Source: a virus. Taken from it: DNA of 64,000 bases. This document shows positions 3,790 to 23,989 of this stretch, in pieces; the stretch's first letter is position 1; every line of letters begins with the position of its first letter. The notes beneath the pieces were generated by a model. It worked only from the letters and a program-made list of their open reading frames with translations. It did not search any database and was not told the DNA's origin. The DNA lies in IMG/VR virus record IMGVR_UViG_3300012953_000017, positions 1 through 64,000 of that record. One strand, 5' to 3'. The position numbers were made by a program, and so were the translations under genes.

Positions 3790-4104
3790 TCACCCTTGTC
3801 GCTGCTGTCGAATAACTCTGGCCAACGCCTCGCTGGCACGAGAGCGCATAGGAGAAGGTTTCTGCTTAGCCATGTGTGCTCCTGCTCCGGAGCGGTGTTC
3901 GCCTACAACATCAAGCATTTCAGGAGAGTCAACTACAGGATCTGCGTCATGATGAACGTTTGCGTGATCTACATCTTTGTGAAGATTATCAAAGCCAGAC
4001 CATGCATCTTCTTCTGCTTCAACTTCAGATGGGTGCTCGGCGTCTAGCATCTCGGCGACGGCCTCTCGAATAATTCTTCTCAATTGTCTTTGTGTAATTT
4101 TCAT
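3790..4104 (-). CDS. hypothetical acidic protein with MKITQRQLRRIIREA tag
   Basis: AGGAG RBS; ATATTTA motif upstream (+ strand taaatat 4126-4132). Confidence 0.75.
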   Translation of the reverse strand: MKITQRQLRRIIREAVAEMLDAEHPSEVEAEEDAWSGFDNLHKDVDHANVHHDADPVVDSPEMLDVVGEHRSGAGAHMAKQKPSPMRSRASEALARVIRQQRQG

Positions 4105-4131: not shown

Positions 4132-4953
4132 TCACTTAAGCAGAGCGTTTAATGCAGAAGGCCCTCCGGGGAGCCAATTCATGTCACACGCACTAGAACC
4201 TACTTTTGCTAGCCCTGTGCCTTTAGATGTCCACTGCCAAACTGTCCACTCATTCCATGAGGAAATATAATCAGGCTCGACCCTATCTAGAGGATCTTTA
4301 ATATAGTCTGCTACCCAAAGAGGATAGTCATCCAGACCACTACAGTCACCTTTTAAGTACCCTCTAATAAACCACTTGGCAGTATATATTAAAGGCTTTC
4401 GTCCGGTTTCTTTCTCACACTCCTGCAGCCACTCTAGAGCCCACTGCCTGTTGTGATCCGGATCGCCTTTGACACCCGATTCGAGGTCTAGCACAGGAAT
4501 TAGATCGCCTTGCAAAATAGAGCTTCCGTAAGACTTAAGAAAGTGCTGAACTTCAACTTTTGGATCGTTGTTTTCGGGACGACCAAAGTGATATCCACCT
4601 ACAGGTATTCCGTTTCTTCGGCAGCCTTCAAGATTTCTCTTTCGACGCTTGTCTTTAAACGTCCTGCCTTCACTTATCTTGGCCCAGACGTATGCTACTC
4701 GGTTTTGATCTACAGAAGACCAGTCAATCTTTCCGTTCCAATGACTTACATCCACACCTGAGTAGACGTCCATCCCCAAACTAGACAGTGTTCTTTGTCC
4801 AGCGACGCCGTCTTGATCTAAATTGTGTGCAGCTTGGTACGTAATCAGTGCTGCCTCTGTCTTAGGGCCGAAATCCCCATCAACTGATAAATTTCCTAAC
4901 AAGGTCTGGAGCCTTTTAACTTCTTGTCCCGCATGCCCATTTTTTAGGATCAT
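4132..4953 (-). CDS. endolysin: peptidoglycan-binding domain plus GH25 muramidase
   Basis: VDGDFGPKTEAA..YQ..L.QDGVAG (PG_binding_1); GVDVSHWNG, KISEG, GGYHF, LDLE, LWVADY, WQWTS (GH25). Start set at MILKNG (4953), directly after the upstream gene. Confidence 0.9.
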   Translation of the reverse strand: MILKNGHAGQEVKRLQTLLGNLSVDGDFGPKTEAALITYQAAHNLDQDGVAGQRTLSSLGMDVYSGVDVSHWNGKIDWSSVDQNRVAYVWAKISEGRTFKDKRRKRNLEGCRRNGIPVGGYHFGRPENNDPKVEVQHFLKSYGSSILQGDLIPVLDLESGVKGDPDHNRQWALEWLQECEKETGRKPLIYTAKWFIRGYLKGDCSGLDDYPLWVADYIKDPLDRVEPDYISSWNEWTVWQWTSKGTGLAKVGSSACDMNWLPGGPSALNALLK

Positions 4954-4954
4954 A

Positions 4955-5323
4955 CTATCTCTCATCTCGGGATTCGTGCTCGTGGACTTCCCTCGTCTCG
5001 AGAACGGGAACGACATGAGCTGTCGGCACATTTCTAAGAATTTGTTTTCCGAATTTAAGGTCATAATACCTAATATCTCCACTCTCGCTTAGCGAATGCC
5101 ACAACACAGTACCCACCTCATCTCTACCGATTCCATGAACTTCTCTCATAGCTGGGGACCCCAGCTTACCGTGCTTGAGTCATTGATGGCTTATGAGGTC
5201 TTCTTTTTCATCGGGCAAATGAGATAAGTCTGCCTGATCCATGCCACTTCCAAAAGGGGTGGCTGATTGGCTTTTTATGGCTTCTCTAATGATTTTTCTA
5301 AGTTGTCTATTTGTGACTTTCAT
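4955..5323 (-). CDS. candidate selenoprotein, 122 aa with in-frame TGA at codon 48 (5180-5182); His-rich putative metal-binding domain
   Basis: One frame reads MKVTNRQLRKIIREAIKSQSATPFGSGMDQADLSHLPDEKEDLISHQ*LKHGKLGSPA then MREVHGIG...WHSLSESGDIRYYDLKFG...HEHESRDER; SECIS-like hairpin just 3' of the TGA. Confidence 0.7.
5150..5166 (-). promoter_or_regulatory. putative bacterial-type SECIS hairpin
   Basis: mRNA reads UGA CUCAAGCACGGUA AGCUGGG-GUC-CCCAGCU; perfect stem with apical GGUC starting 19 nt after the UGA. Confidence 0.6.
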
Positions 5324-5387
5324 AAAGTAACCTTATGTGTAATAGTTTCATATGTTAAGTATGATCTAAGGCACAAGAAGGACAGTC

Positions 5388-6485
5388 TTAGACCTGCTCA
5401 AAAAGTAGTTCGTCTAAAACATGGAGATACTGTTTGTAATCATCTCCATGGATTCCGTAAAGCGCAGTTACCGCCGAGCTTAAAAGCGAGTTGCCGTCCT
5501 GAGGTGTAAAACAAAATCCAGTCACTGCAGTTTTGTTATTTTTTGTTTTTCTCACCTGAAGTGACGGCACTGAAACTACTGCTTGATTGTAGATTCTCCC
5601 ATAGTATCCGTGGTCTCGACCGAATGAAAACACCTTGTTCGAGCAAGCTTTGTGTGTGAGAGCAATAAATTTATTTTCTCTCAACATTCCTACTACATCT
5701 TCATGTGACATGGCTTTGTCGACTGTAATAGAAAATCTTATTGTGTGCATATACTGAGAATTTGTTTTCATCGCAGAAGAATAAACGGGCACCGATTTTT
5801 TAACAGTTTGCATTAAGTCGTTGACGTCTCTTGCGTGATGCGTACCAAATTTTTTGTCACTATGACTCCCTAAAGTCGGAGAAGCCACAAAACTTCCATC
5901 TTGACTCACATCATTTGCGCGCCGTATGCAAACAAAGTCACTTTCTACTACTTTTCCAAAAGACCCAAGTGTCGCTAACAGACATGCGATATTATGTGTG
6001 TTGCAGCTGACGACTTGCACAAATCTTGTGGACATGAAATGAGGATCCCCAAGGATGTCATCGTTAATACCATACGCATATGGCACACCGAACCCCTTTT
6101 CGCTTCCTTGCGCGACAAAAAGAATTCTTCCAGAATAAGCAGCGTCTAGCCCTAGATAATTCTCATCCTTGTTTTGATTTCCTGCAGGAGTGCAATCTAT
6201 TACAACGTCAACTTTATTAAATACTGAGTCCAACAAGTCCTTGGCGTGATTACCATACACATTAAATTTTTCAGCACAGGCAAGATCAGTCGCTACAAGT
6301 TTTGCACCTTTTCGGCACATACTGTTGACTTTTCCTACTTCATCGATAAGCGGCGTTCGCTTATGGAAATAGACATTTTCAATACCTAGACGCTTTCTAA
6401 GAGTTGCTAGCAACCCAACAAGAGGCTCACCAATGGTGCCTGTTCCTACAACTAAAACAGATTTTTTACTCAAGATCTTCTCCAA
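5388..6485 (-). CDS. type II (archaeal-type) glyceraldehyde-3-phosphate dehydrogenase-like protein
   Basis: Rossmann GTGTIG, DVVIDCTP, QGSEK, catalytic VVSCNTH, RRAND, THHARDV. Confidence 0.7.
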   Translation of the reverse strand: MEKILSKKSVLVVGTGTIGEPLVGLLATLRKRLGIENVYFHKRTPLIDEVGKVNSMCRKGAKLVATDLACAEKFNVYGNHAKDLLDSVFNKVDVVIDCTPAGNQNKDENYLGLDAAYSGRILFVAQGSEKGFGVPYAYGINDDILGDPHFMSTRFVQVVSCNTHNIACLLATLGSFGKVVESDFVCIRRANDVSQDGSFVASPTLGSHSDKKFGTHHARDVNDLMQTVKKSVPVYSSAMKTNSQYMHTIRFSITVDKAMSHEDVVGMLRENKFIALTHKACSNKVFSFGRDHGYYGRIYNQAVVSVPSLQVRKTKNNKTAVTGFCFTPQDGNSLLSSAVTALYGIHGDDYKQYLHVLDELLFEQV

Positions 6486-6773: not shown

Positions 6774-7820
6774 CTATAGACGGTTCACGTGAGTGCTACT
6801 TTCAACAACCCCGTTTGAAGACTGTCGTGTAAGGGTAGACTTCGATCTAAAGTCGGACAAGGACCGGCATCCGCTATAAGAAAGTCCGCTGCGAATACCT
6901 TTTTCTAAACGCTCGAGAACATCTGCAACTGGCCCCTTATAGGGGATCGTTGAAGATACACCCTCTTCAGAAGATGTATGACCTCTCCAGTCAATTTGAG
7001 CTTCAACAGATGCCATTCCTCGGTATACTTTGTGCTTTGTATAAACCTGTCTTCCGTTGATAATCTCGGGCTTCTCAATCACTTCCCCAGGGGATTCATC
7101 TGTACCTGCCAAAAGTGACCCCAGCATAACTAAATCAGCGCCGGCAGCGAGAGACTTAACAATATCACCGCTGGTTCGAATACCTCCGTCAGCAATTAGT
7201 GCAGCATCTCTGTCAGAACGAGAACACTCAATTATCGACTGTAAAGTTGGCATGCCATGGCCTGTCTGAATTCTAGTAGAACAAATAGATCCTCCGCCGA
7301 TACCAACTCTGACAGAATTGGCGCCCCAGTCTGATAGATCGTTAAAAGCCTCTAGCGTAGCGACATTTCCTGCCATGATATGCAAACTGCCTACATACGG
7401 GTCTTCTCTTAAGGAGCGCAAGGCATCTTTCATCATTACATGATGTCCGTGCGCGATGTCTACGCAAATAACGTCTGCGCCGGCTTTAGCAAGCGAGCGC
7501 GCTCGGCGTAAAAAATCACCAGATACACCAACAGCTGCTCCAACAACAGGACAACCACCGTTCTTCGCCGAATACACAGCCTCTGATTGTTGATCCATTG
7601 TATTGTATCGGTGGATGATTCCTAGACCACCTTGGGCAGACATCTGGACTGCCATTGAAGTACCTGTCACCGTGTCCATTGGACTCGACACTATCGGCAA
7701 ACTAAATTTATGTGTGCCTATGTTGGGTACATTGCTTGTGAGGTCAATTTCTTTTCTGGACTTAATGTCAGAATAACGAGGTGTCAAAAGAACATCATCA
7801 AAACAAACGCCTAATTTCAT
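6774..7820 (-). CDS. guaB: IMP dehydrogenase / GMP reductase family protein (no CBS domains)
   Basis: [53 protein letters not shown]. Confidence 0.85.
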
Positions 7821-16133: not shown

Positions 16134-16418
16134 TCAATCCGAGAGATCGGATAAAATCATTCTATGCACTGCTGCTCTTCGTCTTCTGAGTTCTGCTGCA
16201 GAAGGCTGCATGTTGGACATGCATCTTATTCCTAGCTTTTTGTAAGCTTTTTTGTGCAGTTTTCGAAATTTTCTTTTTGCTTTTCTACGGTCTTCAGGAG
16301 AGAGAGACTCTAATGCATTAGTGATCTCATCTTTTGAGAAAAAACTTGGGCCTTCAAATGGAGCAATTCCTAATTCGACCATTTTTATAGCAGCTAATAT
16401 TTCTTTTGTGTCTCGCAT
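16134..16418 (-). CDS. hypothetical basic protein
   Basis: GAGG RBS; Arg/Lys-rich. Confidence 0.6.
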   Translation of the reverse strand: MRDTKEILAAIKMVELGIAPFEGPSFFSKDEITNALESLSPEDRRKAKRKFRKLHKKAYKKLGIRCMSNMQPSAAELRRRRAAVHRMILSDLSD

Positions 16419-16438: not shown

Positions 16439-17671
16439 TTAATCTCTATCGTTCCTAAAGCACACAAACGTCGGAAATCGAAGTGATCCGTCAGGTGTGA
16501 CTTCTTGATATCTTACTTCGATAGTTCGCCCTATAAAACTATCCGGTGATGCCCAGATTGTATCACGAAGGTCATCAGAGAACCCAGAACCAACTTGAAC
16601 TTCGACACCATTGTAAACCACCACAACAGAACCAAGTTTATCAGAATGCTTTCCTGTTCCTTCTAGAAGCCTTTCAACTTTAAGATCTACATCATGAAAT
16701 GCTTTTAGCTTCATTACCTCAGGACCACGACCGAACTTGTATGGGGCTTCCAAATCTTTGATCATTGCTCCCTCGTACCCTTCGGTAACATATTGATCGT
16801 GATAACCCTTGATAGTGAGATAGTCTGCGGCAATTTTGGTCCTTGGGACTACCTTAATATACTTTCCGCTATTGCCGTTCAGGTTGGTGCAAAGTGTCTT
16901 ATACCTGTCTTCACACGTCATAACAGTTTCTCGGCTTTTCCACTCGTTCATCGGTATGTAATCAAACAAAGACAAATATGTGTCAGTAGTTACAACATTT
17001 TCTTTGCGGTATGCCTGGCGCATGAGTGAAGTAAAATCTTCTCCCATAATCTCGCCGTCGTAGCAACCATCAGGAAGCATTGCCAAATCAGCACCAATAG
17101 TACTGTCGAAATTAGAAATTAACTTTCCTGAACGTGCGTAAAGCAGTGATTCGTCACCTTCGACAATTGCAAAACAACGGATGCCGTCTAATTTTGGCTC
17201 AATTGCCACCTCTACCTTACCTTTGAGACGCTTTTCCTCAAACTTCTGTGCTAGTGCAACATCGAAAGTTGGAATCAAGCCAGGAAAAACTTTGTTGACA
17301 GTCTTTGTAGAGGCACCGATCGCAAGATGTTTCTTAAGAATCTTGCGCATCCACTTTTCTTCCTCCGGGGTCGCAGTGCTCAAAGCTCTGTAAAGAATCT
17401 CTACAGCAGCATTCCCCGTATGATACCTGTCAGCGCAAATTTGTGCGCAGTCAAAAAACATATTCCATCGATCAGTCTCGTTTTTTCCAACGCTTCTATC
17501 CTCAGCTTTTACTTTTGGGACTTTTACAACATGGAAAGGTACAAAATTATCCAGACCAAATTTCAATGCCTTTTTTAGAGAATCGTTCTCGGCATGTGCC
17601 TGAAGAATCTCCTTCTTAGCATTAGAACCCGGGACGTTTTTTATCTGCTCCAAAATATCAGATACTAGCAT
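16439..17671 (-). CDS. lig: ATP-dependent DNA ligase
   Basis: EPKLDGIR, YDGEI, LFD, EGAMIK, Y..GR, KLK, OB fold VGSGFSD...SLRFPTF...RND. Confidence 0.95.
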   Translation of the reverse strand: MLVSDILEQIKNVPGSNAKKEILQAHAENDSLKKALKFGLDNFVPFHVVKVPKVKAEDRSVGKNETDRWNMFFDCAQICADRYHTGNAAVEILYRALSTATPEEEKWMRKILKKHLAIGASTKTVNKVFPGLIPTFDVALAQKFEEKRLKGKVEVAIEPKLDGIRCFAIVEGDESLLYARSGKLISNFDSTIGADLAMLPDGCYDGEIMGEDFTSLMRQAYRKENVVTTDTYLSLFDYIPMNEWKSRETVMTCEDRYKTLCTNLNGNSGKYIKVVPRTKIAADYLTIKGYHDQYVTEGYEGAMIKDLEAPYKFGRGPEVMKLKAFHDVDLKVERLLEGTGKHSDKLGSVVVVYNGVEVQVGSGFSDDLRDTIWASPDSFIGRTIEVRYQEVTPDGSLRFPTFVCFRNDRD

Positions 17672-22363: not shown

Positions 22364-23989
22364 TTAAAATGACATTAATGTGGAATCTGAAGTGTTGCTT
22401 TCTTCATCATGCGCCATAGCACAGCCTACAGAAAGTAAGTTACACGCTGCACTGGCCGCATGCTGTAACGCAGAACGGACGACTTTAAGTGGGTCAATAA
22501 TCCCTGAGTCAAACATGTCCACGTATTTTTCATTTCTCGCGTCGTAGCCTTTAGTCCCTTTTAGTCGAATGACTTTTTCTAAGACAACCTCAGACACACC
22601 TCCAGAGTTCTTAACAATCTGGAGTAAAGGTGCTTCACAAGCCCGTCGGACGATTTCCAGCCCTACATTCTCATCTGTGTTCGCTTTTTTCTTAATTTCT
22701 CTTTCTAAGCATTTTGAAGATCTCACTAATGATACACCGCCGCCTGGGACAATGCCTTCGTCGATTGCAGCTTGTGTCGCATGTAATGCATCTTCGACTC
22801 TGTCTTTTCGCTCTCTTAGTTCAGTTTCAGTCGACCCACCTACCTTCAGTATTGCTACGCCGCCGGAAAGAGTTGTGATTCTTCGTTTAAGTGCTTCTAT
22901 CTCAGGCTGCAGAAGTGTTGGATCTTTCAGGCGTTCCTTCACAGAAAGAAGTCTAGACTCTACTTTTTCAGAGTCGGCCTTGCTACTAATAAATGTTGTT
23001 TTATTTTTTGTTACTATTGCACGCTTGCACTTTCCAAAATATTTTTCATCAACGTTAATTTCTCCAGAAGACACATCGTCATAAACTTCGCATCCAAGAA
23101 TTGCAGCGAGGTCTCCGAGGGCACTAATTTGCGCAGTACCAAACTCCGGAGACTTTATTGCGCAGACATTTAATGTCCCTTTGAGCTTATTAACAACTAG
23201 ACCTTGCAGTGCTTCGCCATCGACGTCGCTGCAGACCAAGAGCAATGTTTTTTGCTCTGAGTGTACATGTTCTAGAAGAGGCAGGACCTCTTTGAGCGCA
23301 CTAATTTTTTTGCTACAAAGAAAGACACATGGATTTTCTAGAGTAGAAATCATCTTGTCATTATCAGTTATAAAATAAGGAGACAGATAACCTCTTTCTA
23401 TCTCTGTCCCATCGACAACTTCAAGAGTTGTATCAAATCCCTTTGCCTCCTCGATGGTGATGACTCCGTCACGTCCAACTTCGCCCATCGCCTTACACAA
23501 AAACTCGCCTATTTCTGATTCTCCATTTGCTGAAATAGTTCCAATCTGGACAATCTCAGATTCACTAGTTACAGGAACAGATAAAGCCTGTAGATCTTTG
23601 ACAACTAGATCCACACCTTTCATGATACCTCTTGTAATATCAGTAGAATTGTATCCCGATGCTATCATTTTCAAGCCTTCTCTGTATAGAGACTGTGCTA
23701 ATACAGTTGCTGTTGTGGTACCGTCGCCTGCAACTTCGGCGCTTCTCTGTGCTGCTTCTTTTACCATTTGCGCGCCCAGATTTTGAAATCGCGCGCGAAG
23801 ATTGATCGCTCTAGCAACAGTCACGCCGTCTTTTGTCAAGTGAGGCGGTTGACCTAATCGCTCAATTACTACGTTCTGGCCTCGAGGTCCCATTGTCACT
23901 TTTACAGCGTCAGCAAGAGTCTCTACACCTTGTAAAATTTTATCTCGAGCTTCGTCGCCAAAAACTAGCTCTTTTGTTTCTTCAGGCAT
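22364..23989 (-). CDS. groEL: chaperonin GroEL
   Basis: VTMGPRG, TKDGVTVA, GDGTTTATVLA, GIVPGGG, GIIDP.KV. Confidence 0.97.
   Translation of the reverse strand: MPEETKELVFGDEARDKILQGVETLADAVKVTMGPRGQNVVIERLGQPPHLTKDGVTVARAINLRARFQNLGAQMVKEAAQRSAEVAGDGTTTATVLAQSLYREGLKMIASGYNSTDITRGIMKGVDLVVKDLQALSVPVTSESEIVQIGTISANGESEIGEFLCKAMGEVGRDGVITIEEAKGFDTTLEVVDGTEIERGYLSPYFITDNDKMISTLENPCVFLCSKKISALKEVLPLLEHVHSEQKTLLLVCSDVDGEALQGLVVNKLKGTLNVCAIKSPEFGTAQISALGDLAAILGCEVYDDVSSGEINVDEKYFGKCKRAIVTKNKTTFISSKADSEKVESRLLSVKERLKDPTLLQPEIEALKRRITTLSGGVAILKVGGSTETELRERKDRVEDALHATQAAIDEGIVPGGGVSLVRSSKCLEREIKKKANTDENVGLEIVRRACEAPLLQIVKNSGGVSEVVLEKVIRLKGTKGYDARNEKYVDMFDSGIIDPLKVVRSALQHAASAACNLLSVGCAMAHDEESNTSDSTLMSF

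Follow-up and report, generated by a model that had tools for sequence, protein, structure and literature searches.

The gene at positions 5323 to 4955 on the minus strand of a 64-kb stretch of viral DNA (the first 64 kb of the 119,919-b IMG/VR record IMGVR_UViG_3300012953_000017, hereafter called the window) probably encodes one 122-residue selenoprotein, in which the UGA at codon 48 would be read as selenocysteine (Sec) by the machinery of the host. Judged by comparison with its relatives, the gene carries the classic signature of a bacterial selenoprotein gene, because five features are found together: a TGA without drift, its alternation with cysteine (Cys), an invariant histidine (His) neighbor, a covarying hairpin at a fixed position with a loop starting with G[G/U], and the loss of this hairpin in the Cys forms. 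In the mechanism that we propose, the 17-nt hairpin located 13 nt past the UGA would act as a bacterial-type selenocysteine insertion sequence (SECIS) within the open reading frame (ORF). Host SelB loaded with Sec-tRNA(Sec) would bind the hairpin and hand Sec to a ribosome that has stalled at that UGA. The phage would provide the mRNA signal only, while tRNA-Sec, SelA, SelB, and SelD would come from the marine host, and Sec would replace the Cys of other lineages in a putative metal or redox site.

The reading frame, followed directly on the minus strand, starts with the ATG at 5323–5321, meets the TGA at 5182–5180, and stops with the TAG at 4957–4955, that is, 122 codons plus TAG. An AAGG ribosome-binding site (5331–5334) can be read 7 nt ahead of the ATG, and an ATACTTA promoter-like motif can be read farther upstream (5356–5362). 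The product begins with the amphipathic N-terminal tag MKVTNRQLRKIIREA (codons 1–15, 5279–5323), which ends with I-R-E, and continues with a linker, the segment S-H46-Q-U48-L-K-H51-G that contains the proposed Sec codon (5180–5182), and then WH76SL, YD..FG, and H114-E-H116. Translation table 11 calls a 64-codon ORF from an internal ATG at 5149 (4955–5149), which corresponds to the C-terminal part of a predicted beta-barrel domain (WHSL, YD..FG, H114-x-H116). The SECIS-like hairpin AGCUGGG-GUC-CCCAGCU (5150–5166) has 7 bp and a 3-nt loop, with its stem 13 nt and its loop 20 nt past the UGA. An earlier reading, made from the letters of the window alone (hereafter the sequence-only reading), had proposed a candidate selenoprotein here. 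Its coordinates for the ATG, TGA, TAG, hairpin, AAGG, and ATACTTA are all right on the minus strand, and translation bears out its read-through product of 122 residues with the recoded residue at position 48. The hairpin that it had placed at 5150–5166, 13 nt after the UGA, appears in both the minimum free energy and the centroid structures of an unconstrained RNAfold prediction. The ATACTTA motif is not over-represented, with 13 copies on the coding (minus) strand of the 119.9-kb record versus about 16 expected; about eight of them lie 20–45 nt ahead of a start codon that has a ribosome-binding site, a position suggesting that the motif is part of a phage promoter.

Relatives of the gene were found by an HMMER scan of 1.84 billion representative proteins, which returned 59 proteins at E ≤ 0.001, of which 38 were fetched. 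A word-indexed protein search with the single protein gave one match only, a 72-aa protein starting at an internal Met. The read-through protein alone (P0001) had no match in a search of viral contigs, neither P0001 nor P0011 matched GenBank phages, and the family was not found in 185,579 species genomes by a profile search with alignment A5. In the 38 fetched representatives, the column of the UGA is occupied by Cys in 6, within a motif H-[SA]-C-A-x-H, and by a printed "W" in 14 (P0005, P0007, P0010, P0013, P0014, P0016, P0028, P0030, P0031, P0037, P0043, P0045, P0047, and P0050); nine proteins end there, eight start at the next codon, and one starts at an internal Met. Because these five groups are what gene callers would make of an in-frame TGA, the DNA of the homologs was fetched. 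Subgroup alignments brought 49 IMG/VR rows, and later scans added the Cys forms together with those "W" forms that diverge most, so as to give 44 distinct 72-nt contexts drawn from the window, one metagenome locus (L003), and IMG/VR loci. Codon 48 is TGA in 42 of them and TGT in the other 2, and it is never TGG, TAA, or TAG, although two of the search patterns carried W at codon 48, which favored the detection of TGG forms.

Every DNA context fetched for a "W" protein or another non-Cys form has TGA at codon 48; for example, the locus L048, which carries this TGA, is 99% identical to the "W"-printed protein P0010. The "W" of the database proteins would be accounted for if short contigs had been translated with TGA as Trp, which seems to be the case. 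Because the DNA of the non-Cys forms always reads TGA, the proteins that print "W" or start at the internal Met are, on this comparison, gene-calling artifacts, and such starts, which the sequence-only reading had named as evidence against itself, lose that meaning. Coding conservation, which the same reading had named as supporting evidence, extends to both sides of the codon. Over residues 1–120 the gene is homologous to L003, which shows 41% identity and has its TGA in the same codon position, as well as to many IMG/VR loci. In a 26-row alignment (A10), no variation is seen at H46, position 48, H76, L78, and H116, and almost none at G71, G82, Y87, and H114. The amino acids L-[TK]-H-[GVA], encoded by the stretch that separates the UGA from the hairpin, are conserved at the protein level, and the frame upstream of the TGA is open for 200–400 codons in many loci. 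The sequence-only reading had also mentioned relatives with an H-x-C-x-x-H pattern, and these do exist, as the Cys forms among the fetched homologs. The Cys/TGA column, the two-sided conservation, and the covarying hairpin described below all support its candidate selenoprotein.

The same contexts bear on a scenario with two genes, in which the tag peptide would end at the TGA and a second protein would start at the ATG at 5149 or at an ATG following the TGA, the hairpin serving to tune restart or mRNA stability. Gene callers produce exactly such calls, TGA-ATG occurs in 15 distinct contexts, and in the window an ATG comes directly after the hairpin. However, the codon after the TGA is ATG in only these 15 of the 42 TGA contexts; it is CTN in 22, GCG in 4, and TTT in 1, so that the next codon is no start in 27 of them. 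Moreover, the stretch L-[TK]-H-[GVA] is kept as protein, the Cys forms are continuous, and a plain stop codon would be expected to drift among TAA, TAG, and TGA. We therefore regard two separate genes as very improbable.

The hairpin is present in all 42 TGA contexts, with its stem starting 11–13 nt and its loop starting 18–21 nt after the UGA, with stems of 5–8 bp and loops of 3–4 nt (GUC, GGA, GGG, AGUU, and one GGUU); it is absent at that place from both TGT (Cys) contexts. Besides AGCUGGG-GUC-CCCAGCU in the window, examples are GGAUUUG-GGA-CAAAUCC in L003 and, in further relatives, GGAAGAA-GGG-UUCUUCC, AAAGCUG-AGUU-CAGCUUU, AGUGGAA-GUC-UUCCACU, AAGCGGAA-GGA-UUCUGCUU, and ACUUGGGG-GGA-CUCCAAGU. 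The structure is thus kept while the encoded peptide varies by subgroup (KLGSPA, RIWDKS, KRKGSAL, KLSSAL, and EWKSST). Covariation was evaluated on an alignment of 38 rows (33 distinct) with an 8-pair helix, against 500 shuffles. Paired cells make up 95.5% of the helix, as compared with 75.2 ± 1.7% in the shuffles, none of which reaches the observed value; the pair count is limited by a subgroup with 4-nt loops, in which the two innermost pairs of the 8-pair scheme are physically impossible. Changes on both sides were observed in 7 of the 8 stem pairs, and the covariation score was 0.572 versus 0.203, a value again reached by 0 of 500 shuffles, whereas sliding the partner by 1–3 columns left only 33.6–59.5% of cells paired. 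The covarying hairpin that the sequence-only reading had named as support is therefore found in 42 of 42 contexts, with two-sided changes in 7 of 8 pairs.

The synonymous entropy in hairpin codons is 0–0.5, versus 0.9–2.1 for multi-codon residues in the flanks. In the first subgroup, codons +4 to +11 have entropies of 0–0.5 (Val is GTT in 17/17, Arg CGG in 9/9, and Lys AAG in 17/17 rows), and in the second, codons +5 to +9 are likewise near-frozen (one Ser is AGT and another TCA, each in 15/15). At the level of sequence comparison, this shows that the hairpin codons are under RNA-level selection.

The bacterial SECIS (bSECIS) model, as given in the part of a 2026 review available to us (PMC13188914), calls for a loop of 3–9 nt, a stem of 4–16 bp, a spacing of 16–37 nt, a G among the two bases that open the loop (mostly G[G|U]), and an energy at or below −7.5 kcal/mol. 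Stem, loop, G position, and spacing lie within these bounds in 42 of 42 TGA contexts, and the hairpin of the window alone reaches −10.4 kcal/mol. Several observations nevertheless weigh against the reading of the gene as a selenoprotein. The hairpin search over the 42 contexts demanded a G in the first two loop bases, so that this feature was preset there and rests on the unconstrained folds (GUC, GGA, GGG, and AGUU). Taken by itself, the hairpin attains −7.5 kcal/mol in no more than 7 of 42 contexts; the 52 nt following the UGA do so in 40 of 42, but shuffling leaves the fold about equally stable. Nor does the folding energy of the region stand out, with z-scores of −0.39 (81 nt), −0.82 (56 nt), and down to −1.39, and thermodynamic stability was dropped as an argument for the hairpin. 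A loose bSECIS geometry also follows 1305 of the 4605 TGA trinucleotides (28%) of the 119.9-kb record, and geometry alone therefore proves little. The element is also minimal, a hairpin of 17–19 nt that lacks what we take to be the bulged U and the 4-nt GGUC loop of E. coli fdhF. The subgroup of 15 contexts with ATG directly after the UGA, in which H51 is replaced by Glu, would fit a stop-restart pair as well. Finally, a search for a decoder in five phage records with a member of the family, including a 288.7-kb record that is 96% complete, gave no tRNA-Sec above the cut-off and no selA, selB, or selD. Under stricter definitions, a hairpin at least as stable at an allowed position follows 18 of the 4605 TGAs of the record (0.39%), and a stem of at least 7 bp with a 3–4 nt loop and a spacing of 18–20 follows 12 of them (0.26%). 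By these base rates the window sequence alone is suggestive, and the weight therefore rests on the comparison with relatives.

The role of TGA elsewhere in these genomes was also considered, since TGA might be reassigned, either genome-wide or in late genes, in a manner resembling codes 4 or 25 or through a suppressor tRNA, or the gene might be a pseudogene or the TGA an assembly error. Stop-codon recoding does occur in large phages, and some public proteins print W at codon 48. However, among the 134 ORFs of at least 80 aa called with table 11 in the 119.9-kb record, which cover 93.7% of it, 71 end in TAA, 43 in TAG, and 20 in TGA, including the endolysin gene located directly downstream, and 7 of the 40 minus-strand ORFs of at least 150 aa end in TGA. 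On the coding strand, no place other than the gene at 4955–5323 has two open frames separated by a single in-frame TGA that a strong hairpin follows; one more in-frame TGA followed by a hairpin, at 16187, is on the plus strand, which is the non-coding one here, and was taken as chance. The 119.9-kb record encodes two tRNAs, Leu-tag and Met-cat, and the 96% complete relative has tRNA-Thr, Leu, and Arg and a tmRNA-like gene only, and no UCA-anticodon tRNA was found in either. Sub-threshold tRNA-Sec matches were tRNA-Leu(taa), Arg, Gln, His, Lys, and Asn. Since TGA normally stops ORFs and no tRNA-Sec, UCA tRNA, or sel genes were found, the records examined have neither a reassigned code nor a decoder carried by the phage. 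Furthermore, 42 distinct contexts and independent contigs alike retain the TGA. In two other runs, contigs covering 5128–5415 and 4905–5335 carry it with 0 differences, and it is therefore not an assembly error, an outcome that the sequence-only reading had listed among those that would undo it. Reassignment, a pseudogene, and an assembly error are together extremely improbable.

The tmRNA-like gene, with the tag peptide ANNNYFYDSERLAA, lies at 3–355 of L061 (record G001), at the very end of the 288.7-kb relative (ARAGORN). No hint of the host came from the neighboring GMP-reductase-like protein, whose best matches on genome contigs reach 54% identity in scattered lineages. An RNA-library run (X20) contained one 225-nt contig of a relative, corresponding to 4832–5056 and thus ending short of the UGA, and gives no sign of transcription or read-through here.

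A further possibility is programmed read-through of the UGA without selenium, in which a near-cognate tRNA (Trp) would decode the codon while the hairpin delays the ribosome or interferes with release factor 2, so that a 47-residue tag peptide and the complete protein would be made in a constant proportion. In favor of this, TGA, the leakiest of the three stops, is the only one seen here, 22 of the 42 contexts have C and 15 have A as the next base, and the five phage records showed no Sec machinery. On the other hand, TGG is seen in 0 of 44 contexts despite the two W-written search patterns, Cys is the only sense codon seen and stands next to an invariant His, and the hairpin holds the spacing of a bacterial SECIS and its G[G/U] loop start. 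To our knowledge, structure-stimulated read-through is not established in bacteria. A phage precedent is the coat protein of Q-beta, in which UGA read-through inserts Trp to make A1 and needs no hairpin. The present gene resembles A1 in that a phage gene is continued past a UGA to give a short and a long product, but it differs from it by the Cys alternative in relatives, which is never Trp, and by the conservation of a covarying hairpin. Read-through without selenium is thus, in our view, unlikely.

The selenoprotein reading relates the gene to several known systems. Like bacterial selenoprotein genes such as E. coli fdhF, it has an in-frame UGA aligned with Cys and a stem-loop within the ORF just 3′ of the UGA; unlike them, it is carried by a virus of bacteria whose records lack Sec machinery, and no Pfam, PDB, or clear PHROG relative of its protein was found. 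Molluscum contagiosum and fowlpox viruses encode glutathione peroxidase selenoproteins, which are captured host enzymes with a eukaryotic SECIS in the 3′ untranslated region. The present protein would share with these the reliance of a viral Sec protein on host machinery, but it belongs to a phage-specific family and would use a bacterial element within the ORF. Selenocysteine has been described in a few eukaryotic viruses, as far as the accessible part of the source goes (PMC8310308). In phages, tRNA-Sec genes occur in Basilisk-like Bacillus phages (PMC6145125) and in huge wastewater phages, for which Sec proteins were suggested as possible (PMC10747093), both on the basis of the text portions that we could retrieve. 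In those portions, these phages have the tRNA and no reported selenoprotein gene, whereas here we find a candidate gene with a putative SECIS and no tRNA-Sec.

The structure of the product was predicted with AlphaFold2 from the 26-row alignment, with a mean pLDDT of 75 and values of 76–95 per block for residues ~41–110. The model consists of an N-terminal helix (residues 5–18, the tag), followed by a disordered linker and then by a small beta-barrel whose strands are at 43–49, 51–54, 71–76, 86–91, 94–100, 104–106, and 111–117. In the prediction, H46 and U48 lie in the first strand, H114 and H116 in the last one, and H76 at the end of a strand. The product is thus modeled as a small SH3-like beta-barrel with a His/Sec cluster, and from this arrangement we infer that H46, U48, H76, and H116, together with H114 and mostly H51, may form a metal or redox site. 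Fold searches returned only SH3/KOW/Tudor-like barrels, which are non-specific (best Foldseek E-value 0.41), and the best VIA-align Z-score, 5.8, is below the level of ~8 at which the tool attaches meaning, so that no function was drawn from them. Sequence searches gave only E-values of 0.02–0.08 for the read-through protein in PHROGs, no Pfam match for P0001 and chance-level rows only for the 26 members of alignment A10, and 0 matches in a profile search of PDB sequences.

The record, which CheckV estimates as 42% complete, has a G+C content of 41.7% and nearly all of its genes on the minus strand. It belongs to a T4-like phage, as it encodes a capsid protein of the gp23 type (PF07068, 220.9 bits) and a prohead protease of the gp21 type (PF03420, 96.6 bits; record G000). 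The read-through gene is followed by a GH25 endolysin gene with a PG_binding_1 domain (4132–4953, minus strand), whose ATG lies 1 nt past the TAG and which ends in TGA, and then by a second small gene (3790–4104, minus strand) headed by the same N-terminal tag. The latter corresponds to an N-terminal module that is fused upstream of the Cys-form domain in relatives: its first 67 residues match the N-terminal module of the Cys-form protein P0008 (35% identity, E-value 1e-10), in which the module, with …AWSGG/FDNL…VDH…, precedes the Sec/Cys domain, and P0012 matches 3790–4104 more weakly (E-value 2e-4). In view of the P0008 fusion, the tagged genes on either side of the endolysin therefore form one polyprotein in other phages.

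The tag also heads most homologs of the read-through gene. In the form K-x-T-x-R-Q-L-R-x-I-I-[KR]-E, it begins at least six tandem genes in L003 (1069–3342), and it recurs, immediately ahead of the Sec domain, inside long ORFs that reach 408 codons (loci L011, L017, L025, L033, L038, and L045), as if the internal copies marked cleavage points of a polyprotein. T4 internal proteins carry an N-terminal capsid-targeting sequence that the gp21 prohead protease cuts after L/I-x-E. The similarity lies in a short tag ending with I-R-E on small unrelated proteins, in a genome with a gp21-type protease and a gp23-type capsid protein; the tag differs in being longer (~15 residues, K-x-T-x-R-Q-L-R-x-I-I-R-E) and in occurring inside longer proteins as well. 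Because the tag ends with I-R-E, the kind of site cut by the T4 protease, capsid targeting or cleavage by way of the tag is plausible by analogy. It is possible, though doubtful, that the Sec protein is itself a capsid-targeted internal protein, which the tag would bring into the prohead, which would be cut after I-R-E, and whose His/Sec barrel would be injected with the DNA and could serve in the new cell as an effector, either metal-dependent or redox. If this were true, a clade of marine T4-like jumbo phages would rely on host selenium and SelB, and the particles of these phages would contain selenium.

Other genes of the window lie farther from this subject. A 365-aa ORF directly upstream (5388–6485, minus strand) has no Pfam match at E ≤ 0.01; by eye it shows a VVSCNTHN motif, which we take to be dehydrogenase-like, and it presumably resembles type II GAPDH or aspartate-semialdehyde dehydrogenase. 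On the same strand we found an enzyme of the IMPDH/GMP-reductase family (6774–7820), an ATP-dependent DNA ligase (16439–17671), and a GroEL-type chaperonin (22364–23989; PHROG 5725, E-value 4e-151), which is less than 60% identical to all of the 239 matched GenBank phage records, many of which are unrelated phages.

In the literature searched, selenoproteins are described from cells and from a few eukaryotic viruses, and we found no description of a bacteriophage-encoded selenoprotein, with the restriction that supplements, which might list prophage-borne entries, were outside the scope of the search. The available part of the review of the bSECIS model contains 0 occurrences of phage, virus, or viral (PMC13188914). 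The mechanism proposed here is already known in kind; what would be new are the phage carrier, the protein family, and the minimal element. If the proposal is right, a widespread clade of uncultured marine T4-like phages, with contigs up to 289 kb, hijacks the host SelB pathway by means of its own SECIS, and gene callers systematically split or mistranslate the gene, as two ORFs or with W. It would also define a new selenoprotein fold with the site H-x-U-x-x-H ... H ... H-x-H, and its minimal 17-nt element, along with the natural variants, would offer a ready test set for SelB-SECIS recognition. For the phages themselves, host range would then be tied to Sec-using bacteria and infection to the supply of selenium.

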